Source: an uncultured bacterium (GTDB lineage Bacteria > Patescibacteriota > Minisyncoccia > Phycocordibacterales > UBA2100). From it: DNA of 64,000 nucleotides. The stretch lies in contig CAIOKC010000032.1 of assembly GCA_903858755.1 (NCBI GenBank), forward strand, positions 29,930 to 93,929, written 5' to 3'. Position numbers and translations under genes: made by a program. Positions 258 to 33,160 of the stretch are shown here, piece by piece. Below the pieces are notes generated by a model. That model saw nothing but the letters and a program-made list of their open reading frames with translations, did no database searches and had not been told where the DNA came from. Position 1 is the first letter of the stretch. Every line of letters begins with the position of its first letter.

Positions 258-3095
258 CTATTCGAATTGGATAGTCGTACTCGTCGCCTTTTGTATCTGC
301 TCGATATTCTTTTCGATGGCTATACGATGAGGATCATCGCCCTTCACCTTGAAGACCACAGGATCGCCGGGGCGCAGATTCTGCTCCTTGCGAAATGCCT
401 GTATCTCGCGGATGGTGTCGCGCACAAGCCCTTCCGCTTTCAACTCGTCGGTGAGTGCCGTATCAAGCGCAAGTTCTTTCCCGGGCTTTACTTCTTTTAC
501 GTTCACCTCTTCCGCAATAATGGTCATGTACCCAAGCGGCAATTTTGAGTCGGCAGGGACCACGAGCGACGAGAGTGGCTGACGAATCTTGATCCCCGCC
601 CTATCGCGCGCCTCAAGCGCCTGCGAGACGATCATACGCGCCGTGCGCATCGCCGCGAGCACGTTTGCGTCATCGCTGCCGAAAAGACGCTCGAAGATAG
701 ATGCATTCCGCGATACCTCCGGCCACCTGGCGAGGTGTACGCTTTCTTCATCTTCGCTCTCGCGAATTTCTTGGAAGAGACGCTCCGCAAAAAACGGTGC
801 GGACGGCGCCATGACACGCGCAAGCGCATGAAGCACGTAGCGCATCGTCGCGAGTGCGGCTTTTTTATCCAGCGTATCTTCCTTGAAGCGGTCGCGAGAG
901 CGGCGGAGATACCATACCGAGAGGTCGTCTATAAATCCGCCGATGGGGCGCGTCGCCACATCAAGCTGGTATGCGTTGAACCCCGCGGTCGTCTCGCGAA
1001 TAAGCTCGTCGAGCCGCGCAATGATCCATGTGTCGAGAATATTTTCGCTCTTCCAGTCGCGCACCGTGCCATCCGCATACAGCTTGTAAAATGCGAGCAC
1101 ATTGCTAAGGCGTCCGATATGCTTCTTCGCCACCTCATCCACCCCCTTTTCCGAGAAACTCAGATTTTCCGCCTGCATGACCGGTGATGAGAGAAGGTAC
1201 ATGCGGAGCGAATCCGCCCCGTATGTGTCGACCATCTCCATCGGGTCGGGATAATTCTGGAGCTTCTTCGACATCTTCTTGCCGTCTTCCGCGAGCACGA
1301 TGCCGTTGACGATCACATTCTGGAACGCATTGCTGCCAAACAGGGCGCCTGCAAGGACATGGAGGTAGTAGAACCACGCGCGGGTCTGATCAATCCCCTC
1401 CGCGATGAACTGTGCGGGAAAGACTTTGTCGAATGCCGCCTTATTCTCAAAGGGATAGTGCCGCTCTCCGTAGGGCATGGATCCGGAGTCAAACCATGTA
1501 TCAAGCACGTCCGGGATGCGCCTCATCGAGCCGCCGCATGCGCAGGGCACCGCGACATCGTCCACGACGTGTTTGTGGAGGTCATCGATCTTTTCGCCGC
1601 TCGCCTCTTCAAGCTCACGCGCGGAGCCGAATACGCGCTCCGCTTCGCATATCTGGCAACGCCATATCGGGATGACGCTTGCCCAGAATCGCTGGCGAGA
1701 GATAGACCAATCCCTCGCGCCAAGGAGCCACTTCCCCCACCGGCCTTCCTTGATATGCTCGGGCGACCACTTGATAGACTCCGCGTTTTTTAGAAGGTCG
1801 TCTTTGATGTGCGCGACGGAGACAAACCACGAGCTCGTCGCGTAATTCAAAAGCGGCGTGTCGCAGCGCCAGCAATGCGGATACGAGTGCGCGATGTTTT
1901 CTTTCGAGAAAAATAATCCGTGCTCTTGGAGGTATGTGAGGACTGCGATGTCTGCACCCAAGCGCACGCGATCATCTTCCGAATTCGGCTTCACTTCCAT
2001 TCCTGCAAAATCTTTTACTTCCGGCTTGAATGTGCCGTCCGGATTCACGTGTTGTACGAAGGGCAGATGTTCTTTCTTCAAAAGCTCCCAGTCTTCCGCG
2101 CCGAATGCGGGCGCCTCATGCGCGATTCCCGTGCCGCTCTCTGCGGTGATAAAATCCGCCGCATATACTTTCCAGCCATTCTCGCGATTCTTAAGATGCG
2201 GATCGCTGGCGTAGTAATCGAACAGTGGCTCATATTCCAAGCCGACGAGATCTGCGCCCTTGAATCGTTTCGTGACGGTGCGCTGAAGCGCATCGGCGTA
2301 CTTGTTCGACACGATAAGCTGGCTTTTGTCGTCCCAGTGCAGAGCTACGTACTCAATGTCGCCATGCACCGCGAGCGCGACATTGCCCGGCAGGGTCCAC
2401 GGGGTCGTCGTCCATGCGAGCATGTATGCTTCGCCCGACAACCCGAGCTTCTCGGGATTCTTCAATTTACACTTCACCGTCACCGCGATGTCTTTCACAT
2501 CTTTGTACCCCTCCGAGACCTCTTGCTGAGAGAGTGTCGTCTCGCAGCGCGGGCAGATGTGCATCGAGCGATAATCTTCGTAGACGAGTCCTTTGTCGTA
2601 GAGCTGCTTGAAAACCCACCACACGGATTCCATAAACGGCTTGTCCATGGTGCGGTACGCGTGCTTCATATCCGCCCATCTCCCGATGCGAGGGATTATC
2701 TTCTCCCACTCGTGCGCATACGTGAGCACTTGCTCGCGGCAGCGCTCGTTGAATTGCGCGACGCCCATCGCCACGATTTCCTTCTTGTGCTTGAAACCGA
2801 GCTGCTTCTCGACGATATTTTCTATCGGGAGTCCGTGGCAATCCCACCCCCACACGCGCGGCACGCGGTAGCCCTGCATCGTCCAGTAGCGCGGCACGAC
2901 ATCTTTGATGACAGAAGCGACGATGTGCCCGTAGTGCGGCAGACCCGTCGCAAAAGGTGGACCGTCGTAGAAAATGTAGTCGCCATGTCGCGCCGGCTTA
3001 TCGAGCGTCTGTTGGAATATACCGCGCTCTTCCCACCATTTGAGTATCTCTTCTTCCCGCAGAGCAGCATCCGATTTTTGCGGTTTTTCAGACAT
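258..3095 (-). CDS. ileS: Isoleucyl-tRNA synthetase
   Basis: 945-aa ORF with class I HIGH-type motif (PHYGH) and KMSKS-type motif (KMSKKLQNY); editing and anticodon-binding regions recognisable. Confidence 0.95.
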   Translation of the reverse strand: MSEKPQKSDAALREEEILKWWEERGIFQQTLDKPARHGDYIFYDGPPFATGLPHYGHIVASVIKDVVPRYWTMQGYRVPRVWGWDCHGLPIENIVEKQLGFKHKKEIVAMGVAQFNERCREQVLTYAHEWEKIIPRIGRWADMKHAYRTMDKPFMESVWWVFKQLYDKGLVYEDYRSMHICPRCETTLSQQEVSEGYKDVKDIAVTVKCKLKNPEKLGLSGEAYMLAWTTTPWTLPGNVALAVHGDIEYVALHWDDKSQLIVSNKYADALQRTVTKRFKGADLVGLEYEPLFDYYASDPHLKNRENGWKVYAADFITAESGTGIAHEAPAFGAEDWELLKKEHLPFVQHVNPDGTFKPEVKDFAGMEVKPNSEDDRVRLGADIAVLTYLQEHGLFFSKENIAHSYPHCWRCDTPLLNYATSSWFVSVAHIKDDLLKNAESIKWSPEHIKEGRWGKWLLGARDWSISRQRFWASVIPIWRCQICEAERVFGSARELEEASGEKIDDLHKHVVDDVAVPCACGGSMRRIPDVLDTWFDSGSMPYGERHYPFENKAAFDKVFPAQFIAEGIDQTRAWFYYLHVLAGALFGSNAFQNVIVNGIVLAEDGKKMSKKLQNYPDPMEMVDTYGADSLRMYLLSSPVMQAENLSFSEKGVDEVAKKHIGRLSNVLAFYKLYADGTVRDWKSENILDTWIIARLDELIRETTAGFNAYQLDVATRPIGGFIDDLSVWYLRRSRDRFKEDTLDKKAALATMRYVLHALARVMAPSAPFFAERLFQEIRESEDEESVHLARWPEVSRNASIFERLFGSDDANVLAAMRTARMIVSQALEARDRAGIKIRQPLSSLVVPADSKLPLGYMTIIAEEVNVKEVKPGKELALDTALTDELKAEGLVRDTIREIQAFRKEQNLRPGDPVVFKVKGDDPHRIAIEKNIEQIQKATSTTIQFE

Positions 3096-3118
3096 ATTTT
3101 AGCCTATGGTAGCAAACG

Positions 3119-3147
3119 AAAAGCCCGGCAGCGAGTGCCGGGCTTTT
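3119..3147. terminator. GC-rich hairpin flanked by A-run and T-run (bidirectional intrinsic terminator-like), 24 nt upstream of ileS start
   Basis: aaaagcccggcagcgagtgccgggctttt: 8-bp stem gcccggca/tgccgggc with A4 and T4 flanks. Confidence 0.5.
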
Positions 3148-3338
3148 GCATACGTGTCGGCGCGGGATCACTGCGCATCGGCGATCGCATCCTCGTAGCG
3201 AGGATCGATGATTGACCAGCCGCTGCCTGGAGAGCTTCTTCCCGGCTGAGAAACATCCTGGCTTTGCGAGCAAATTCTGCCATTATTTCCTCCTTTGGCT
3301 CCTCACTGCAGACTACCTGCAATCGGAGAATTACGCAA

Positions 3339-4997
3339 TTACATCCTCTCCGGAGCGGGAATGCCGAGAATCCAAAGACCGTTTTTGAGCGTCTTCGCAA
3401 CAGCCGCAGTCAGTGCCACCTTGTGGTGAGCGCTAGTCGAACCATCGAGAATCTGCTCGCGCGCGTACCAGCTGTTGAATGCCGATGCGACTTCGAGGAG
3501 ATACGTGGTGAGAAGGTGCGGCTCGAGCTTGCTGGCCGCATATTCGACGATCTCAGGAAAACGATACAAAAGTCGCTCCAAATCGTTCGGTGCAGTGATA
3601 TGATATATCATATCAGTCAACCCTTGTGTTCTGGCTCTCTCGACGACGGCGTGCGCGCGTGCGTGCGCATACTGCAAGTACGGACCCGAATCTCCCTCGA
3701 GCGAAAGCGCGCGCTCGCGGTCGAACACGATGTCTTTGCCCGACGCTTGCTTGAGTATCTGGTATTTTATGGCGGCGACGGCGACATCTCGCGCGAGCGC
3801 GCTCGCATCGTCCGCGCGGCTCTCCGCCGCGCGCGCTTTCGCCGCTTCGATCAGCTCACGGAGGAGCGCCTCGCCAGTGATCACATCGCCAGTGCGCGAC
3901 GACATCTTCCCCGATGGAAGCCGCATCATGCCGTGAGAGACATGCCGTATGTTTGTAGCAATGTCTGGAAGCACCTTCCTCATCGCAGCGAGCACCACTT
4001 CGAAATACCCGGCTTGTTCGTGGGCTGTGATGGTGATCGAGGTGTCAAAGCCCCACACCTCCGATTTCATCTGCGCGAGCCCAAGATCCTTCGCCTCGTA
4101 CGTCGGGAGACCCTTGGACGTAATAAACACGCGGGTATGGAGACCGTCCTGCTCGCCCTTGTAGACCACAGCGCCATCGCTCTCTTCGAAAATCTCCGGG
4201 TGCGCTTTCACGAGCGCAAGACCCTTCGGCGCTGTCTCGCTCTCGAAAAAGTAGTGATCGAATTTCGTGCCGAGTATTTTATACAGCTCCTCAAAATGCT
4301 TGAGTGATGCCTCGCGCCCCGTCGCGTATAGCTTGTTTACCTTCTCGTCGGAGCGCTCGTATACTTGCGCATTGATCGCATCGATTTCCTCTTTCGCACC
4401 TGGGTCAGATTCGTACGCTTTTGAACCCTCCGCGTAGGCGCGCCCAAGCTCGGAAGCATCCTTCGGGTCGACACCGAGCTTCATCACGCCCCAGATCGAT
4501 TTCGCCACGTGCGGACCCACATCGCCTTGGTAATTCGCCCGCTTCACCTCAGCGCCGGAACACTGGAGAAGGCGCGAGATCGCCTCGCCTATCGCGTTCG
4601 ACATCAAGTGCCCGATGTGGAATTCTTTGAAAGGATTCGGGTCGGTATACTCGACCATTATTTTTTTACCACTTTGATTTGTATTCGCTCCCCACATGTC
4701 TTCAGAGCGCGCTTGTTCGAGCGAGGCGGCGAGTACTCCCGGTGCGAGATAGAAATTGATGAAGCCCGCGCCAGCGACCTCTATTTTCGCCACGCCATCG
4801 AGAGTACCCAGTGTCTCCACAAGCTTTTCCGCGAGTGCACGCGGCACCATTCCCGCCTGCTTCGCGTACTGAAGCGCCGCGCTCGTCGCATAGTCGCCAT
4901 TCCCTAATTCTGCTGGACGTTCGACGACTACGCTGCCAGCAGCGATGCCCACGCTCTGAAGCGCGACGATGAGTGCTTGTTCGAGTTTCTCCCGCAT
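3339..4997 (-). CDS. argS: Arginyl-tRNA synthetase
   Basis: 552-aa ORF with HIGH motif (FHIGHLMSNAIGE) and typical ArgRS anticodon-binding C-terminus. Confidence 0.95.
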   Translation of the reverse strand: MREKLEQALIVALQSVGIAAGSVVVERPAELGNGDYATSAALQYAKQAGMVPRALAEKLVETLGTLDGVAKIEVAGAGFINFYLAPGVLAASLEQARSEDMWGANTNQSGKKIMVEYTDPNPFKEFHIGHLMSNAIGEAISRLLQCSGAEVKRANYQGDVGPHVAKSIWGVMKLGVDPKDASELGRAYAEGSKAYESDPGAKEEIDAINAQVYERSDEKVNKLYATGREASLKHFEELYKILGTKFDHYFFESETAPKGLALVKAHPEIFEESDGAVVYKGEQDGLHTRVFITSKGLPTYEAKDLGLAQMKSEVWGFDTSITITAHEQAGYFEVVLAAMRKVLPDIATNIRHVSHGMMRLPSGKMSSRTGDVITGEALLRELIEAAKARAAESRADDASALARDVAVAAIKYQILKQASGKDIVFDRERALSLEGDSGPYLQYAHARAHAVVERARTQGLTDMIYHITAPNDLERLLYRFPEIVEYAASKLEPHLLTTYLLEVASAFNSWYAREQILDGSTSAHHKVALTAAVAKTLKNGLWILGIPAPERM

Positions 4998-5663: not shown

Positions 5664-6089
5664 CTAGCGGCTCTCGACGTCCACCCCCATGCTGCGCGCC
5701 GTGCCCGCGATGATTTTCTTGGCTTGCTCAAGATCGTTGGCGTTCAAATCTTCCATCTTGTCTTTCGCGATATCCTCAAGCTGCTGCTTCGAGAGCTTGC
5801 CCACTTTGTTCTGCGGCTTGTCCGACCCCTTCTCGATGCCGAGCGCCTTCAAGACCATGCGGGAGGCAGGCGGCTTTTTCACGATGAAGGAGAACGTGCG
5901 ATCCTTATAGACCTGCATGACGACCGGCAAAATACTACCGATTCTATCTTTGGTCTGCGCGTTGAATTGATTGACGAATTCCCCGATATTGACGCCCGCA
6001 GGACCAAGCACCATACCCACCTGCGCAGCAGGAGTAGCGGTACCCCCCGGAAGCTGCAATTTGATTACTTTCGTTATTTCTTTTGCCAT
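5664..6089 (-). CDS. rplK: 50S ribosomal protein L11
   Basis: [43 protein letters not shown]... is a canonical L11 sequence. Confidence 0.9.
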
Positions 6090-6128
6090 ACGGAATCTGT
6101 GTCGGTGCACTATACCTGCAAGTCGACG

Positions 6129-7118
6129 TTATTTCAAGCTTTTGAGCTTCGTCAGGATTGGACGTGCCAGCTTCCGTGCATTCCCATGCGAGAGCAGCCC
6201 ACTGTATGATTCCAGCACCGGTTTGCTCTCGCTTCTCGCCGTGGCGCTCATCATCCGCCGCTTCGTCGCGGTGCGCAGCACGCGGTGGTCGGGAAAATGC
6301 ACCCAGCCCAGGAAATCGACACCGGATGCGAGCGTCTTGATGAACACCTTGTCGGGATGGAGTGTGAGTGCGAGTCGGCGCTCAAGAAATTCTGCAATCT
6401 TCGGGAGCAGGATATCAAGGTCCGACCTTGACGCAGAGAGGAAGACGAAATCATCCGCGTAGCGGACGTAGTGCTTCGCTTTCAGACGATGCTTCACGAA
6501 TTGGTCGAATTCATTCATGTAGATATTTACCAACAGTTGGCTCGTGAGGTTGCCGAGCGGGAGTCCCCTGTGCTGACACCGATTCCCCACGGTCGTGGTG
6601 AATCGGTGGCGGTGCGGGCTGCAGGAGCAGAAGCTCCCGATGATCTCCGAGAGGAGCGCGAGGATGCGCTCGTCTGCAATCGAGCGGCGCAGGATGTCGA
6701 GCAGAATAGATTGATCGATACTCGCGAAGAATTTCCTGATGTCGCACTTGAGTACCCAGCAGGTGCGCGTGTGATTGCGCGAGACTGTGTACGCAAAGCG
6801 GCGAAAGCGGTCCATTGCCTTGTGCGTACCCTTTCCTCTCCGGCATGAATACGAGTCTGCGATGAAGGCGCGATCGAAGAAGGGATAGAGCATGCGGTAT
6901 ATCGCATGGTGGAGCGCGAAGATGTTGTCCATGAGCGCGTGCTGGAATTCCTGTACATCGAGCTTCTTGCGCTTGCCCCGCACAAATTCTCGCCAAGCTT
7001 CGAGGAGATTTTCTACCGAGATGATATCCTCGTAGTTATGCGCGAAGCGGATGCGACCAATACGCCCCCCCGGCCGAGGACTGCTGCCTGTTTTGGAGCG
7101 CATCAAGACCGCGTACAT
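6129..7118 (-). CDS. Reverse transcriptase, diversity-generating retroelement (DGR) type
   Basis: 329 aa with RT motifs 1-7 and YADD. Motif 4 reads GLPLGNLTSQLLVNIY, the [I/L]GxxxSQ signature of DGR RTs, rather than the QGxxxSP of group II intron or retron RTs. No maturase/X domain. The N-terminus (NYEDIISVENLLEAWREFVRGKRKK) fits DGR RT starts. Confidence 0.75.
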   Translation of the reverse strand: MYAVLMRSKTGSSPRPGGRIGRIRFAHNYEDIISVENLLEAWREFVRGKRKKLDVQEFQHALMDNIFALHHAIYRMLYPFFDRAFIADSYSCRRGKGTHKAMDRFRRFAYTVSRNHTRTCWVLKCDIRKFFASIDQSILLDILRRSIADERILALLSEIIGSFCSCSPHRHRFTTTVGNRCQHRGLPLGNLTSQLLVNIYMNEFDQFVKHRLKAKHYVRYADDFVFLSASRSDLDILLPKIAEFLERRLALTLHPDKVFIKTLASGVDFLGWVHFPDHRVLRTATKRRMMSATARSESKPVLESYSGLLSHGNARKLARPILTKLKSLK

Positions 7119-7587
7119 TTTGTGGCATGAGTACCATTCTAAACTGCCAAAGACTCACCGATACACCGTTGGTGCAAAGATAGATTCGCTGTTCGCAGAG
7201 GTGATGGAGATGGTATCGGCGGCGGCATTTTTGCCGAAACAGGAGAAACTGTCCTATGTACGGACCGCGATACGAAAGTCTGACGCGCTGAAGCTCCTGC
7301 TTCTGATTCTGTGGGAAACGAAATCTCTTGATACGAAGAAATACGCCGCGCTATGCGCGCCACTCGATGAGGTGGGCAAGATGCTCGGCGGCTGGCAGGG
7401 GCAGCTTGTAAAAAACTCAGCCCCGCGCGAAGGCGCGGGGCTGAAGTGCAAAGGTCAAAGCGGCCAAGTGCAATACAAGTGTCAGAGAGTCGAAGACACT
7501 TCCGGGACGCCAGCGAACGACCAGTCGTCGTGCCAGTCGAGGCCGCCGCGGCTGACGTACACGCGGCGCGCGTCAGGCCAGCGGTAG
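7051..7587 (+). CDS. Four-helix-bundle protein of the Avd / 23S-rRNA-IVS family (putative DGR accessory variability determinant)
   Basis: LPKTHRYTVGAKIDSLFAEVMEMV...LKLLLLILWETKSLDTKKYAALCAPLDEVGKMLGGWQGQL fits the PF05635/Avd-like pattern (PKxxRYxL..Q..RAA ... EVGKMLxGL). The ORF has no stop until 7587. It reads through the convergent gene's terminator hairpin and overlaps the 3' end of the 7482-8126 gene on the opposite strand, so the true C-terminus is uncertain and it may be decayed. Confidence 0.5.
   Translation: MRPIRPPGRGLLPVLERIKTAYILWHEYHSKLPKTHRYTVGAKIDSLFAEVMEMVSAAAFLPKQEKLSYVRTAIRKSDALKLLLLILWETKSLDTKKYAALCAPLDEVGKMLGGWQGQLVKNSAPREGAGLKCKGQSGQVQYKCQRVEDTSGTPANDQSSCQSRPPRLTYTRRASGQR
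7417..7442 (-). terminator. GC-rich hairpin (11-bp stem, GAAG loop) followed by T6 on the minus strand. Intrinsic terminator of the 7482-8126 gene and possible DGR VR-proximal hairpin.
   Basis: cagccccgcgcgaaggcgcggggctg. On the minus strand the hairpin is followed by agtttttt. Confidence 0.5.
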
Positions 7588-8126
7588 AACGCGGCGAAGC
7601 AATATTTGCCGTCAGCGTCGATCCACTGACAAGCAAGCCCCTTCTCGTCGGCCGCGGCAGGATTTTTCTTACAGTAGTCCGCGAGAGCTTCCACGTCAAC
7701 GCGAAGGCCACGCTGACGATATTCCTCGGCAAGATCGTTGCAACTCAACACACCATCCTTGTACTTCGACTTGTCGACGTTGAAGATGTGGAGTCGGGCG
7801 CTAGACTTCGTACCGCGCGGCATTGTCGCGACAACCGCCGAATCGGAATAAATCTTCCGACCAGTATCAATCAATACCTGCTCGTTCGAGCGGGAACGGT
7901 CGATCGTGCGGACGGTGTGGACGATCGAGCCAACAGTCATCGCGATGTGCTTACGCAGGACACCGATCTGCTCGCCAAGATAGCGGTTCTGCCCGAGGAC
8001 CGCCTGCACTGCGGCCGAATCGCCGATTGCCGTGCGATGGGTCATGAGCAGTGCCCTGTAATGGGCGACGGCTTTGTCGACCTGCTTGAGAGTCATTGGG
8101 TTTGATGGGGTCATGGTCTGTGCCAT
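7482..8126 (-). CDS. Hypothetical cytoplasmic protein; candidate DGR target (variable) protein
   Basis: 214-aa ORF immediately upstream, in transcription order, of the Avd-like ORF and the RT. C-terminus ...RRVYVSRGGLDWHDDWSFAGVPEVSSTL loosely recalls RGGSW...-type DGR variable regions. No homologous template repeat found. Confidence 0.35.
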   Translation of the reverse strand: MAQTMTPSNPMTLKQVDKAVAHYRALLMTHRTAIGDSAAVQAVLGQNRYLGEQIGVLRKHIAMTVGSIVHTVRTIDRSRSNEQVLIDTGRKIYSDSAVVATMPRGTKSSARLHIFNVDKSKYKDGVLSCNDLAEEYRQRGLRVDVEALADYCKKNPAAADEKGLACQWIDADGKYCFAAFYRWPDARRVYVSRGGLDWHDDWSFAGVPEVSSTL

Positions 8127-8228
8127 GGCGTCATCTCCTTTTGTGAACGAGCTGTCCTGACGTCCGAGAATACGGAGTCATCAGCTAAATTGATTGTACC
8201 ACTCTTTATCAAAAAAGCAAGTCCACGA

Positions 8229-8274: not shown

Positions 8275-8820
8275 TTACACTCGCTGTACCTGGTCCGCTT
8301 CGAGCTCCACCGGTGTCTCGCGACCGAACATTGGTACGAGCACTTTAACTTTTCCGCGCTCTTCGTCAATCTCTCCCACCTTTCCTTCCAGATCTTTGAA
8401 CGGTCCGTCGATGATAACGACCGCATCGCCCTCCGAGAGATCGATCGCGTGGCGGACAGTATCTCCGAGCGCGCGCTTGAGGATCTTGTCTACCTCTTCC
8501 TGCGCGAGCGGCACCGCCTGATTCGCGGTACCCACAAACCCCGTCACCTGCGGAGTGTTTCTCACCACGCTCCACGCATCGTCGCTCGCGATCATGTCGA
8601 CAAGGACATAGCCGGGGAATATCTTTTCCTTGGTCTCGGTCTTGCGGCCGTTCTTGATTTTTATCTTCTTCTCGGTCGGGACGACGACTTGGAATATCTT
8701 CTCCCCCATGCCGAAAGAGTCGACGCGCTGCCTCAAATTGCGGGCGACCGCGTCCTCGTATCCGGAATACGTGTGCACCGCATACCACTTCCGCTCACTG
8801 CCGTGTGTCTGCTTCATATG
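8275..8820 (-). CDS. nusG: Transcription termination/antitermination factor NusG
   Basis: KWYAVHTYSGYEDAVARNLRQRV...IFPGYVLVDM... (NGN domain) plus C-terminal KOW (GDAVVIIDGPFKDLEGKVGEID). Confidence 0.9.
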   Translation of the reverse strand, partial: HMKQTHGSERKWYAVHTYSGYEDAVARNLRQRVDSFGMGEKIFQVVVPTEKKIKIKNGRKTETKEKIFPGYVLVDMIASDDAWSVVRNTPQVTGFVGTANQAVPLAQEEVDKILKRALGDTVRHAIDLSEGDAVVIIDGPFKDLEGKVGEIDEERGKVKVLVPMFGRETPVELEADQVQRV

Positions 8821-8821
8821 T

Positions 8822-9094
8822 TTATTGGGTCGTCGTGGTCGAGACCTGCTCGACGACAAACGGCGAATCGGAGATCGGCTGCTGCGTGATAGTGATCGGA
8901 TTTTCCTGCGGAAGCACGTTTAAGAAGCGCGCGAGCCCTGTCGTGAAATGAAAGTCGAAAAGCCCGAGGTAGAGCGCGACGAAGATTGAGACGAGTACCA
9001 CAAGAATCGTGTATACGATTGTCTGCACCTGGGTCGGCCACGCGACGTGGTGAAGCTCGCCGCGTGTGTCTTTGAGGTATTGAATGAATGACAT
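8822..9094 (-). CDS. secE: Preprotein translocase subunit SecE
   Basis: 90 aa, FIQYLKDTRGELHHVAWPTQVQTIVYTILVVLVSIFVALYLGLFD: SecE signature and single TM. Immediately upstream of nusG. Confidence 0.8.
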   Translation of the reverse strand: MSFIQYLKDTRGELHHVAWPTQVQTIVYTILVVLVSIFVALYLGLFDFHFTTGLARFLNVLPQENPITITQQPISDSPFVVEQVSTTTTQ

Positions 9095-11781: not shown

Positions 11782-12339
11782 CTACTGATACGAAGGGGGT
11801 TGTTCGGAGACGTGGGCGCGATGGTTTACGAAGCGCGTGAGCGCATAGAGAAGCGAGGAGAGCCGATTCGCATACGCGCGGCTCGAATCAGATATGGCGC
11901 GCTCACCGGATTCGTGCAGCGTGGCGACGCGGCGCTCCGCGCGGCGCGAGACCGCGCGCGCGATGTCGAGCCGCGCGGAGAGCTCGGTCGCACCCGGCAC
12001 CAGAAAGGTCTTGACCGGCGGCATCTCTGCTTCAATGCGGTGTATCAGCATCCCCATCGCCTCGACGCTCGAAAGTGGGATCGATTTCTCCGCGCCGGCG
12101 ACCTCCGCCTGAAGCGTGAAAAGGTGATCTTGCACGTCGTGCAAGACGAGCTTCATCCGTCTTCCCTGCACTTCAGTCCCTTCGCCACATTCCGCCTTGC
12201 ACCACCCGACAAGCGTATTTAATTCATCGAGCATGCCGAGACACTCGAAAATCGGCGAGGTCTTTGACACGCGCGCGCCGGGCGGCGAATCGAAAAGCTT
12301 CGACGTGCCGCCATCTCCTTTCCCGGTGAAAAAAGCCAT
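11782..12339 (-). CDS. ATP:cob(I)alamin adenosyltransferase, PduO/MMAB type
   Basis: MAFFTGKGDGGTSKLFDSPPGARVSKTSPIFECLGMLDELNTLVGW... with the TGDGGTT-like motif of PduO-type adenosyltransferases. Start at MAFFTG, 45 nt inside the track ORF. Confidence 0.8.
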   Translation of the reverse strand: MAFFTGKGDGGTSKLFDSPPGARVSKTSPIFECLGMLDELNTLVGWCKAECGEGTEVQGRRMKLVLHDVQDHLFTLQAEVAGAEKSIPLSSVEAMGMLIHRIEAEMPPVKTFLVPGATELSARLDIARAVSRRAERRVATLHESGERAISDSSRAYANRLSSLLYALTRFVNHRAHVSEQPPSYQ

Positions 12340-12356
12340 GACTCCATGATAGCAAA
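12259..12356. repeat. 98-bp direct repeat copy A (covers the 5' end and start codon of the adenosyltransferase gene)
   Basis: Identical to 14912-15009 except one synonymous G/A difference (12310 vs 14963). Confidence 0.9.
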
Positions 12357-12391
12357 TATCACTCGGTCCCACGTGCAGAGACACGACTCCG

Positions 12392-12817: not shown

Positions 12818-14920
12818 ATGAAACTGCCCGAACTGTCGTTCGCAGCGCTTGCATTAATGGTTATCACTGCACTTTTCAGCGCTACCACGGTCCTTGTACA
12901 TCCTTCCACGGAGGTTGCGCAAACAGTCAGAGCGACATCGCAAAAAGGCAATTGTAAGCTCGGGGACCTAGAATTCAGAGGGGCAAGCAGTATCGGGGAG
13001 CAAGAGTGCAAACGCGGCGCTGAGTATGAGATCATCGCACCAAAAAAGAAGGGGGATTTTGTCTACGATATAAAAACGAAAAAATGCCCACCATCCCCAC
13101 CACCTACCCCACGAGGCGTGAATCCTGAAGTGTGGAAGAAACAGTGGGAGGCAAAGCAGCCAGAAGGAGTGGTAAGTCTAAAGACACCGACCAACGGGAC
13201 GCTCATCGTGACCTGCGACAAGAAATTGGGCAGTTCGGGATCCTTCATGAAGGAGGTCGGCGACATATCGCGTGCCTCTTTGGGTGAGGCGCGAACTACA
13301 TCCCCCGAAAGTCCTCGGACGCCTTCGGCGCCAGCGCGTGAAAGCAGCTATGCTTTTCAAGATTCTTTCGATGAGCAACCCCCTTCTTCTTCGAACTCGG
13401 ACGGAACAGAAAAACCGAAGACGTCGCTTGAGGATTTGGCGAAAGAAATCGCACAAAAAAGAAACGACCTCAACAACAGCGACCCCGCAATCCAGCGCGC
13501 GGCGCAAGACTACTTGGCACTACAATCACGACTCGGAGAAGGGCGCTACATCGGCGTGGAAAGCAGCGAGCGGGACGGGACGCTCGGTGGAGCTATTCAA
13601 AAAGATGTGCGCGAAGCGTCGGCTCGTAATACAGCTCTGGCGATTTCAGACACATTTGCCAATGCGGACGGAGTCTACGTGACCAACGTCGAGCAAAAAG
13701 GTTTGGCGACGCGAGTCCTCGATAGAGCGACCGGGAGCGAGACCTTTTACAGCAATGTTACCGGGAGACCCTTTCTGGAGGTGGACGGCAACGCTCTTTC
13801 TCTTATCTCTGCCGACGGATCAGTGTACCCCGTGGCGCCTGACGGAGAGTGGCAAAACAAACTCGGGACGCTGGACAAAACAGAATACGATGTCTTTGCA
13901 GATAATTACCTCTCCCCGAGAGAAATGCCTGTTCAATCTTTCAAATACGATCCACCAGTGGCGGCCTGGACAGATGATACTGGCGCTGAAATACCGCCAG
14001 CGACTTCTGAATACCCGAATGGTCGCGTGACTATCACTGACAGTGACGGGAACAAAAAGGTTATTCCGGCAGATGAATACTGGGCGGTAATTGAAGCGGG
14101 TAAACGCGTGTACGATACCGACCAACTCGCACGAGAAATAAATCAATGGACACACGGCAAGATCCTTCTCTCGCCGCCAGAAGCATTCCCTTCTTCGAAG
14201 GGCGGCTTTTTTGCTGAAGGCGGCAATGTACCTGCAAGTTCGCTCACGCCACAGTCTATCGGGCAATATGCGAGTGCAATGGAGAAAATGTACGACGTAT
14301 ACAAACAAATGCCGCCGGAACTATGGGCAAACGAGGGTATACAACCTACTGATGTATATACTTTTGCACAAGATCCTGCCGCACCAAAAGTCAGAGCGGC
14401 GGGAATCGCATATCTTGGTGGGGGCAGTCAGTGGTCAAATCCCGACGCACACGACGTATACATGACAACTGGTCACGAGCTTGGGCATACGTTGGGAAAC
14501 GTCTTCCCGAGTGATCAGCAGTGGGGCTCAAGTGTGTATGGCGAATCGTGGCAGCGTGCATACGGTGGGAAAGATTCAGTTGAGGCGTACGCTGCCGGTA
14601 AACTTGGGTACGACAGAGCTCCGGGTTATGCGACGACATACGGCTTTGCGGGCGGTGTGCGTGAAGATCAGGCGGAGATATTTGGTGCCATGCTCACGAA
14701 TTATCCGGCGGTACAACACGCCGCTGCAAGCGATCCTGCGTTGAATCAAAAAATGCAGATGGTGCAGGATTCGTTTTCCGCAGCAACAGGTGGCGTTATG
14801 AATCAGAATTACTGGAACAACATGAAAGTTCTCGACTCAGACTTCTTCCTCGCACAATCAAACCCTAACTTTTTGACAACACTATACCGAGTACTCGGAG
14901 CCAAGCGTGCGGGTCTTTGA
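12818..14920 (+). CDS. Secreted/membrane-anchored protein with HExxH zinc-metallopeptidase motif
   Basis: 700 aa; N-terminal TM/signal (MKLPELSFAALALMVITALF); Pro/Ser-rich linker; HELGH motif near the C-terminus (DVYMTTGHELGHTLGN). The stop codon lies inside direct-repeat copy B. Confidence 0.55.
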   Translation: MKLPELSFAALALMVITALFSATTVLVHPSTEVAQTVRATSQKGNCKLGDLEFRGASSIGEQECKRGAEYEIIAPKKKGDFVYDIKTKKCPPSPPPTPRGVNPEVWKKQWEAKQPEGVVSLKTPTNGTLIVTCDKKLGSSGSFMKEVGDISRASLGEARTTSPESPRTPSAPARESSYAFQDSFDEQPPSSSNSDGTEKPKTSLEDLAKEIAQKRNDLNNSDPAIQRAAQDYLALQSRLGEGRYIGVESSERDGTLGGAIQKDVREASARNTALAISDTFANADGVYVTNVEQKGLATRVLDRATGSETFYSNVTGRPFLEVDGNALSLISADGSVYPVAPDGEWQNKLGTLDKTEYDVFADNYLSPREMPVQSFKYDPPVAAWTDDTGAEIPPATSEYPNGRVTITDSDGNKKVIPADEYWAVIEAGKRVYDTDQLAREINQWTHGKILLSPPEAFPSSKGGFFAEGGNVPASSLTPQSIGQYASAMEKMYDVYKQMPPELWANEGIQPTDVYTFAQDPAAPKVRAAGIAYLGGGSQWSNPDAHDVYMTTGHELGHTLGNVFPSDQQWGSSVYGESWQRAYGGKDSVEAYAAGKLGYDRAPGYATTYGFAGGVREDQAEIFGAMLTNYPAVQHAAASDPALNQKMQMVQDSFSAATGGVMNQNYWNNMKVLDSDFFLAQSNPNFLTTLYRVLGAKRAGL

Positions 14921-15009
14921 CACGCGCGCGCCGGGCGGCGAATCGAAAAGCTTCGACGTGCCACCATCTCCTTTCCCGGTGAAAAAAGCCATGACTCCAT
15001 GATAGCAAA
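14912..15009. repeat. 98-bp direct repeat copy B
   Basis: See copy A. Lies 59 bp from tRNA-Leu. Confidence 0.9.
14913..14991 (-). pseudogene. Orphan 5' fragment (first ~27 codons) of the PduO-type adenosyltransferase gene
   Basis: Encodes MAFFTGKGDGGTSKLFDSPPGARVSKT, then diverges and stops. The full gene is at 11782-12339. Confidence 0.6.
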
Positions 15010-26492: not shown

Positions 26493-26539
26493 TATCGAGG
26501 GAAATGTAGCACAGGTCTCTCCTTTTCCCCAACACCACC

Positions 26540-26575
26540 ATTAACAAATACGCACGGTCGGACGCATTTGTTAAT
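26540..26575. repeat. Palindromic repeat family member P1 (ATTAACAAA...CGGTCGGA...TTTGTTAAT)
   Basis: attaacaaatacgcacggtcggacgcatttgttaat, between tRNA-Arg and the PaaX-like gene. Confidence 0.7.
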
Positions 26576-26587
26576 ATACGAGGAACT

Positions 26588-27178: not shown

Positions 27179-27186
27179 AAGGTGGT

Positions 27187-27222
27187 ATTAACAAAAACGT
27201 CCGACCGGACGTTTTTGTTAAT
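27187..27222. repeat. Palindromic repeat family member P2
   Basis: attaacaaaaacgtccgaccggacgtttttgttaat; 16-bp arms, immediately after the PaaX-like stop. Confidence 0.7.
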
Positions 27223-27271
27223 GTCGGCGGAGGGCGCGTTCAAGGCACATCCCCCACCCGAGAAGAGGGTA

Positions 27272-33069: not shown

Positions 33070-33107
33070 GCCATCTAGTATACGCCCGCTCGCGGCACGT
33101 GTCGCAT

Positions 33108-33143
33108 ATTAACAAACTCGTACGGTCGTACGAGTTTGTTAAT
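33108..33143. repeat. Palindromic repeat family member P3
   Basis: attaacaaactcgtacggtcgtacgagtttgttaat (the arms extend to gcatattaac...gttaatatgc, 33104-33147); between the holA-like gene and polA. Confidence 0.7.
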
Positions 33144-33160
33144 ATGCAGACAAACGACAC

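Follow-up and report, generated by a model that had tools for sequence, protein, structure and literature searches.

The closest described systems to the locus analyzed here are the diversity-generating retroelements (DGRs) of the candidate phyla radiation (CPR) and the DGR of Bordetella phage BPP-1. Wu et al. 2018 (NAR) reported that 90% of CPR DGRs have architecture B3, "TR-(avd)-RT" (TR, template repeat; RT, reverse transcriptase), which is nearly absent elsewhere (PMC5758913). In BPP-1 (mtd-avd-TR-brt; structures of the RT with Avd, 8ub7 and related entries), avd is encoded on the same strand, and a spacer downstream of TR belongs to the functional RNA. Roux et al. 2021 classed DGR activity from single-nucleotide variants, with nothing specific on TR-less or inactive DGRs (PMC8144416). 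We analyzed a stretch of 64,000 nucleotides from an uncultured bacterium of the Patescibacteriota (GenBank assembly GCA_903858755.1, contig CAIOKC010000032.1, positions 29,930 to 93,929), hereafter called the window, and found a cassette inserted between nusG and rplK that contains a target gene with a variable repeat (VR), an avd open reading frame (ORF) and an RT gene. B3-type DGRs of CPR bacteria are already known, and the locus is probably an inactivated member. Comparison with intact cassettes makes it highly probable that this is a B3-type CPR DGR recently inactivated by two deletions, one in the segment that should hold the TR and the other in the RT gene.

Six relatives with intact cassettes (L003, L008, L047, L048, L049, and L051) served as the reference, on contigs chosen for their target or RT homologues. 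L047 and L048 have equal TR/VR coordinates and mismatch counts and were counted separately, and L052, with the same gene layout as L051, was left out of the analysis. We found that all six cassettes share one order: the target gene with the VR on the plus strand, a non-coding spacer of ~330 nt, TR on the plus strand, avd on the minus strand, and RT on the plus strand, with avd and RT overlapping at their 5' ends. The TR/VR mismatches located at TR adenines were 17/17 in L003, 18/20 in L008, 21/22 in both L047 and L048, 17/17 in L049, and 19/22 in L051. This layout is that of architecture B3, and the window shares with it the gene order and orientations (target, reverse-strand avd, RT), the overlapping avd and RT 5' ends, the host group (Patescibacteria/Kaiserbacteria-like homologues), a VR at the 3' end of a target of ~210 aa, and RT and Avd proteins 58-82% identical to those of members with TR/VR pairs. 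The initial annotation had regarded the antisense avd as odd. Since avd lies on the opposite strand in 6/6 intact relatives and B3 makes up 90% of CPR DGRs, this orientation is the rule for the CPR lineage and no anomaly, although it differs from BPP-1, and overlapping avd and RT starts are normal as well. As in B3, the window avd lies on the reverse strand directly upstream of RT; the TR expected before avd is deleted, and only this remnant of the layout is left. The window copy differs from the B3 members in having neither the TR unit, nor the avd stop, nor 37 aa of the RT fingers.

In the relatives, TR lies inside an apparently self-contained transcription unit of ~362 nt (L003 3179-3540; L008 1340-1701; L047 4749-5111; L051 4331-4693). 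The unit consists, in order, of a conserved TGnTAnAnT box, ~7 nt, an invariant GGTAGTAGGCGAATCTGC, a leader of ~218 nt, TR, and a GC hairpin with a T-run. Among four sequences, the hairpins of the leader contain 11 pairs with compensatory double changes. The leader thus stands upstream of TR, in contrast to the downstream spacer of the BPP-1 RNA. An Rfam scan of the window locus and of the relatives' TR units gave nothing above noise. The leader also contains a conserved terminator-like hairpin on the minus strand, ACGAAGTATCTTCGT plus T5 (L003 3309-3295 (-), L051 4461-4447 (-)), so that an antisense avd transcript would cross the whole TR before its end. The ~362-nt unit is absent from the window.

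To locate the lesion, we aligned the window with the relatives, and the multiple alignments showed a gap of ~375-400 nt whose two flanks both align, the gap corresponding to the spacer plus TR. The junction is located at 7438..7446. Against L008, the window sequence 3' of the VR matches positions 1206-1288 and then jumps to 1673-1720. About 45-50 nt are retained past the target stop, followed by the post-TR hairpin and T-run, and the segment missing here comprises, in the relatives, the terminator hairpin of the target gene, a conserved promoter-like TTTTTGATAnAnT box, the ~218-nt leader, and TR. The window hairpin with its T-run (7406..7445, minus strand; 13-bp stem, detected at 7445-7416 by the terminator scan) is homologous to the relatives' post-TR hairpin, aligning to L003 3514-3540 and L008 1673-1701. 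No other terminator-like element now follows the target gene, and the hairpin probably acts as terminator for it. The avd genes of the relatives end in ...RGEK-TGA, with a stop located 10-12 nt past the hairpin and adjoining the TR end (L003 3505, L008 1663, L051 4658). The deletion has either removed this stop from the window or put it out of frame (the TGA at 7442-7444 does not belong to the avd frame), and avd therefore reads on to 7587. The absence of TR, the absence of non-coding space, and the read-through of avd can thus all be traced to one deletion, and the lack of space that had been taken for an oddity of design stems from this deletion. Homologous recombination between VR and TR was considered as its cause and rejected: about 45-50 nt of unique post-VR sequence are kept, and the VR homology ends before the break.

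The missing segment could also be an assembly artefact, in which the TR/VR near-repeats or VR heterogeneity led the assembler to drop TR from a DGR that is really intact. TR/VR pairs are indeed near-repeats of ~100 nt in direct orientation, and hypervariable VRs trouble metagenome assemblers. We consider this very unlikely, because the unique post-VR sequence precedes the break and places the junction outside the VR/TR homology, and because a repeat collapse would leave the independent in-frame 111-nt deletion in the RT gene unexplained. In addition, L001 and L002 (assemblies ERZ18644181 and ERZ27313374) have the same junctions and zero differences in the VR, with L001 differing from the window at sites outside the VR. 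The same junction occurs in assemblies with differing contig names (scaffold_12913, k141_831720), suggesting different assemblers, and a third assembly, ERZ1426665, has the same gene coordinates (compared by coordinates alone). The identical VR and junctions count against an assembly artefact and also against ongoing diversification.

We then asked for a template elsewhere; the TR, RT, and avd searches of this genome covered the 64-kb window. Neither the repeat finder, nor an ungapped scan tolerating mismatches where the putative template has A, nor a sensitive self-BLAST with word size 7 detected a second copy of the VR in the window. When the relatives' complete TR units were compared with the window by BLAST, they matched solely the VR at 7485-7601; the TR leader had no match anywhere in it, and no other copy of RT, avd, or the target was found there. 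These four TR searches bear out the initial annotation, which by eye had seen no TR in the window and had proposed an A-tolerant self-comparison. Its idea of a TR overlapping coding sequence fails on the same results, as the relatives' TR and leader match nothing in the window beyond the VR. We also rejected a TR concealed on the opposite strand within avd, or at any other place in the window, since the A-tolerant scan, the self-BLAST, and the TR-unit BLAST gave the VR alone. The 64-kb window accordingly contains no TR/VR pair, whereas all six relatives have one.

A genome collection that excludes the window's genome was scanned with the initiation of mutagenic homing (IMH) pattern CTGGTCGTTCGCNGGNGTCC and gave 36 matches, 35 of which were chance matches in unrelated, mostly high-GC genomes. 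The one relevant match was L016, an orphan target pair from Patescibacteria. Its two paralogous target copies (2901-3524 and 6791-7423) share ~75% DNA identity and lie on one 8.9-kb contig, the same contig as L045, and neither RT nor avd was found near the pair within these 8.9 kb.

The family includes orphan targets with no RT close by (L004, L016/L045), in agreement with the idea that the DGR is still used, the VR being diversified in trans by a TR, or by a second complete DGR with a compatible TR, outside the 64 kb. Wu et al. likewise noted that DGR components may be transcribed separately and that targets may be remote (PMC5758913), and in the window the IMH-like VR end and the downstream GC hairpin are intact and the RT remnant is without point-mutational decay. 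Nevertheless, the position of TR in all six relatives is physically deleted here, the local RT is without motifs 1-2, the VR is identical across assemblies that differ at other sites, and no other RT, avd, or TR occurs in the window. Diversification in trans therefore appears improbable to us.

The target gene (7482..8126, minus strand) encodes 214 aa, with a helical N-terminal part and a predicted C-terminal C-type-lectin-like (CLec) domain bearing the VR. The VR (7485..7601, minus strand) matches positions 219-335 of the relatives' TR units by BLAST. The IMH-like end is formed by the 3' part of the VR, at about 7485-7524 (CTGGTCGTTCGCTGGCGTCCCG...), and the string quoted as VR/IMH by the initial annotation sits at 7490-7562. 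As the window's own TR is gone, the adenine signature was scored against the TRs of relatives (family consensus, TGCTACGCCRCGTYCAAYCRCTGGAAYGACGAGCGCAAYGTGAACGTCAACCGCAA). The results showed that, over 7503-7601, the VR differs from the TRs of three relatives at 16-18 of 24-26 TR adenines and at 3-8 of ~74 non-A bases (Fisher p 2e-7 to 2e-10). A VR with an adenine-mutagenesis signature (p <= 2e-7, against the relatives' TRs) is thus present at the target 3' end, and this concentration of mismatches at TR adenines indicates that the VR was made by adenine mutagenesis from a TR of the same family.

The target has 14 close homologues, all on Patescibacteria metagenome contigs, which share the fixed frame ACQW.D..G.YC.A.F.RW...R.V.V.R....W...SFAGVP with hypervariable positions scattered between the fixed residues. 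A profile search placed it in a family of 1197 representatives at 50% identity. An AlphaFold model from a 105-sequence alignment reached a predicted local distance difference test (pLDDT) score of 92, and in it the target models as a C-type-lectin-like fold; the AF2 model from a 14-sequence alignment (pLDDT 56) was not usable. The 214-aa protein is a real DGR target, and it resembles the BPP-1 system in its variable protein with a predicted CLec fold, C-terminal VR, IMH-like end, and downstream GC hairpin. Both the target gene and its VR are probably frozen.

The RT gene (6129..7118, minus strand) is an open ORF of 329 aa that matches RVT_1 (2.6e-24). Its best match among solved structures is the Bordetella phage DGR RT, bRT (8ub7_A, 1.2e-26). 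The protein is 58-72% identical to thousands of CPR RTs, and 58-65% identical to the RTs of cassettes with real TR/VR pairs. The sequence LGNLTSQ (6537..6557, minus strand) is intact and fits the DGR-RT signature motif [I/V/L]GxxxSQ defined in PMC7826257. The catalytic YADD (6450..6461, minus strand) is also intact, its residues Y220, A221, D222, and D223 being invariant in the RT alignment, as are the palm and the thumb. The RT therefore belongs to the DGR clade, and it shares with BPP-1 the clade, the LGxxxSQ and YxDD motifs, and the Avd accessory protein.

The initial annotation had mentioned, as a less likely alternative, a defence-type or other RT system that merely resembles a DGR. NCBIfam did give sub-threshold matches to the Drt3a, retron, and Drt2 models, as expected for any RT domain. 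Against this stand the best match to the Bordetella DGR RT, the signature motif, the Avd adjoining the RT, a target bearing an A-mutagenised VR, and the RTs of 58-65% identity in cassettes with real TR/VR pairs. We give a non-DGR system next to no probability and consider this reading effectively refuted.

Although YADD and the thumb, which the initial annotation had singled out for a check, are intact, alignments with 12 close homologues and then with 119 homologues showed that 37 residues of the fingers, expected between MDNIFA and LHHAIY, are absent from the RT. In the homologues this stretch has the consensus LHRDL..Y.HG.Y.AFKISDPKPRDIHKA.VRDRL (alternatively cited as ...ISDPKPRDIHKA.VRDRL). 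A comparable gap occurs in 0/119 homologues, and the gap costs the RT 21 of the 128 columns conserved at >=95%. The catalytic core, from finger motifs 1-2 through the thumb, is thus incomplete. In a phmmer comparison with the PDB, the RT aligned to bRT 8ub7 in two blocks, leaving bRT residues 52-84 unmatched; besides TR, it is the counterpart of these residues that the window copy is without when compared with BPP-1. The unmatched segment includes R74, a predicted dNTP (deoxynucleoside triphosphate)-pocket residue of bRT that promotes adenine mutagenesis (PMC7826257). At the DNA level, the in-frame deletion of 111 nt (37 codons) maps to 6906..6920 (minus strand), between A68 and L69, where GCGCTCCAC meets CATGCG. 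In relatives, short direct repeats (CTCCAYC) lie at both edges of the segment that matches the missing 111 nt, which is consistent with deletion by slippage or microhomology. The 107 highly conserved columns that are left outside the gap show 0 deviations in the RT (other sequences average 1.55), suggesting that the lesion is recent or that the remnant is still constrained. Judging from the motifs that are missing, RT activity has probably been lost.

The avd ORF (7051..7587, plus strand; 178 aa) lies between the target gene and RT. Its residues 12-116 match NCBIfam DivGenRetAVD (E 1.9e-15, model positions 1-103 of 104), and the ORF also matches Pfam bAvd (9e-9), both scores being below the curated cut-offs. 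A PDB sequence search with Avd gave no match. The homologous four-helix-bundle part is encoded by 7084-7398, and window Avd is 70-82% identical to the Avd of intact relatives, so the cassette retains the accessory protein of a DGR. The avd stop codon is lost, and residues 117-178 form a non-homologous read-through tail of 62 aa (7399-7587) that crosses the hairpin and then runs antisense to the VR, across the last 106 bp of the target (overlap 7482-7587). These ORF coordinates agree with the initial annotation, which had described an Avd-like ORF antisense to both RT and target, open to 7587 through the hairpin and 106 bp into the target. The RT and avd starts do overlap, as it had also noted. 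The RT start is probably at 7103 (MRSK..., as in the homologues), which gives an avd/RT 5' overlap of 53 bp, not 68 bp.

These observations can be arranged as follows. Deletion 1 (~375-400 nt, ~7438-7446) took out the segment from the 3' flank of the target to the post-TR hairpin, and with it the target's terminator, the promoter-like box, the structured leader of the TR transcript, and TR. After it, avd runs through the hairpin and antisense over the VR to 7587. Deletion 2, an in-frame loss of 111 nt bounded by short direct repeats, took away finger motifs 1-2 of the RT and, with them, the counterpart of R74. With the template RNA gone and the polymerase crippled, no mutagenic retrohoming would be expected from the local cassette; the VR would be a relic of the most recent round of adenine mutagenesis, and the target, with its predicted CLec fold, would now be an ordinary fixed gene. 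We infer the recency and the order of the two deletions from these comparisons. Of the explanations offered by the initial annotation, a decayed DGR is the one that fits, given the deletion of the TR-bearing segment relative to orthologous cassettes and the RT minus 37 aa of its fingers.

Several points weigh against recent inactivation by two deletions. The evidence covers 64 kb, and a second DGR or a remote TR may exist elsewhere in the genome. RT inactivity is deduced from the missing motifs. No relative of >70% identity was found at the same nusG-rplK site, and the ancestral state is therefore a reconstruction based on cassettes that are more distant. Related samples may underlie the three assemblies. 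Finally, the 107 remaining conserved RT columns are without deviation and avd and the target are open, so that no point-mutational decay is visible, which fits a very recent loss and, equally, continued selection on the remnants. If the remnants were kept under selection after the loss of the template, the frozen target could be a fixed binding protein with its own promoter inside the secE-nusG / rplK region, and the RT could be kept for the rplK promoter carried by its 3' end or for a non-polymerase role. As an alternative, a second DGR elsewhere in the genome could still act on the VR in trans. Nothing but the absence of substitutions at those RT columns hints at such readings, and we regard retention of the remnants as unlikely. 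Inactivation by two deletions remains the reading that we favor.

The family provides another case of loss. In L005/L006/L007 (protein P0012; 1440-2093), a member of the target family is likewise left without a working retroelement. The difference is that the target there is truncated at the N-terminus to 145 aa and followed by ~25 C-terminal RT codons (residues 297-321), whereas all three ORFs of the window are open. This shows an independent, more advanced decay, and that loss is recurrent in the family. The L005/L006/L007 copies adjoin type IV pilus genes, and the intact L051/L052 cassette lies in a similar pilus cluster.

On the minus strand of the window, the gene order is secE (8822-9094; Pfam SecE), nusG (8275..8859; Pfam NusG/KOW), the target, RT, and rplK (L11; 5664..6089; Pfam L11_N and L11), so that secE and nusG form the upstream flank of the cassette and rplK the downstream flank. 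With an ATG at 6089, rplK encodes the 141-aa product called in three assemblies, in which Pfam L11_N begins at residue 9, and the gap from the RT stop is 39 bp; the 18-bp gap first reported for this interval holds for the longest ORF (GTG at 6110) but not for this start. A promoter-like TTGAAA-17-TATAGT (promoter scan, 10/12 matches) lies at 6137-6109 (-), over the RT stop and just 5' of rplK. On the minus strand, an extended -10-like TGGTACAAT (8186-8200) was seen by eye ahead of the target gene. The inserted cassette may provide the secE-nusG / rplK region with promoters or separate those within it. In the relatives, the cassettes occupy sites other than nusG-rplK, in neighbourhoods with toxin-antitoxin genes, type IV pilus genes, or ndk, and these differing neighbourhoods indicate that the cassette is mobile.

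The only strong repeat pair in the window is a 98-nt direct repeat with one mismatch (12259-12356 and 14912-15009), which is unrelated to the DGR. A cobalamin adenosyltransferase gene (11782-12384, minus strand) contains the first copy in its 5' part, and the pair brackets 2.65 kb with a 700-aa ORF (12818-14920, plus strand) for which there was no Pfam match. The bracketed segment could have arisen by insertion, with duplication of the end of a gene. The repeat finder also reported a palindromic element, ATTAACAAA...TTTGTTAAT, in three copies 79-84% alike (26528-26581, 27186-27234, and 33102-33147).

For the B3 family, the locus is of use chiefly in annotation: it shows how a TR-less DGR arises, by one deletion, and that an antisense avd in a CPR genome is no reason to flag an anomaly. 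The more interesting lead is the self-contained ~362-nt TR unit of the intact relatives with its conserved, covarying 5' leader. The locus itself offers a clean, datable DGR inactivation, with the ORFs open and the VR frozen. Combined with L005, where erosion has gone further, it could help to gauge how frequently DGRs are lost in reduced CPR genomes.

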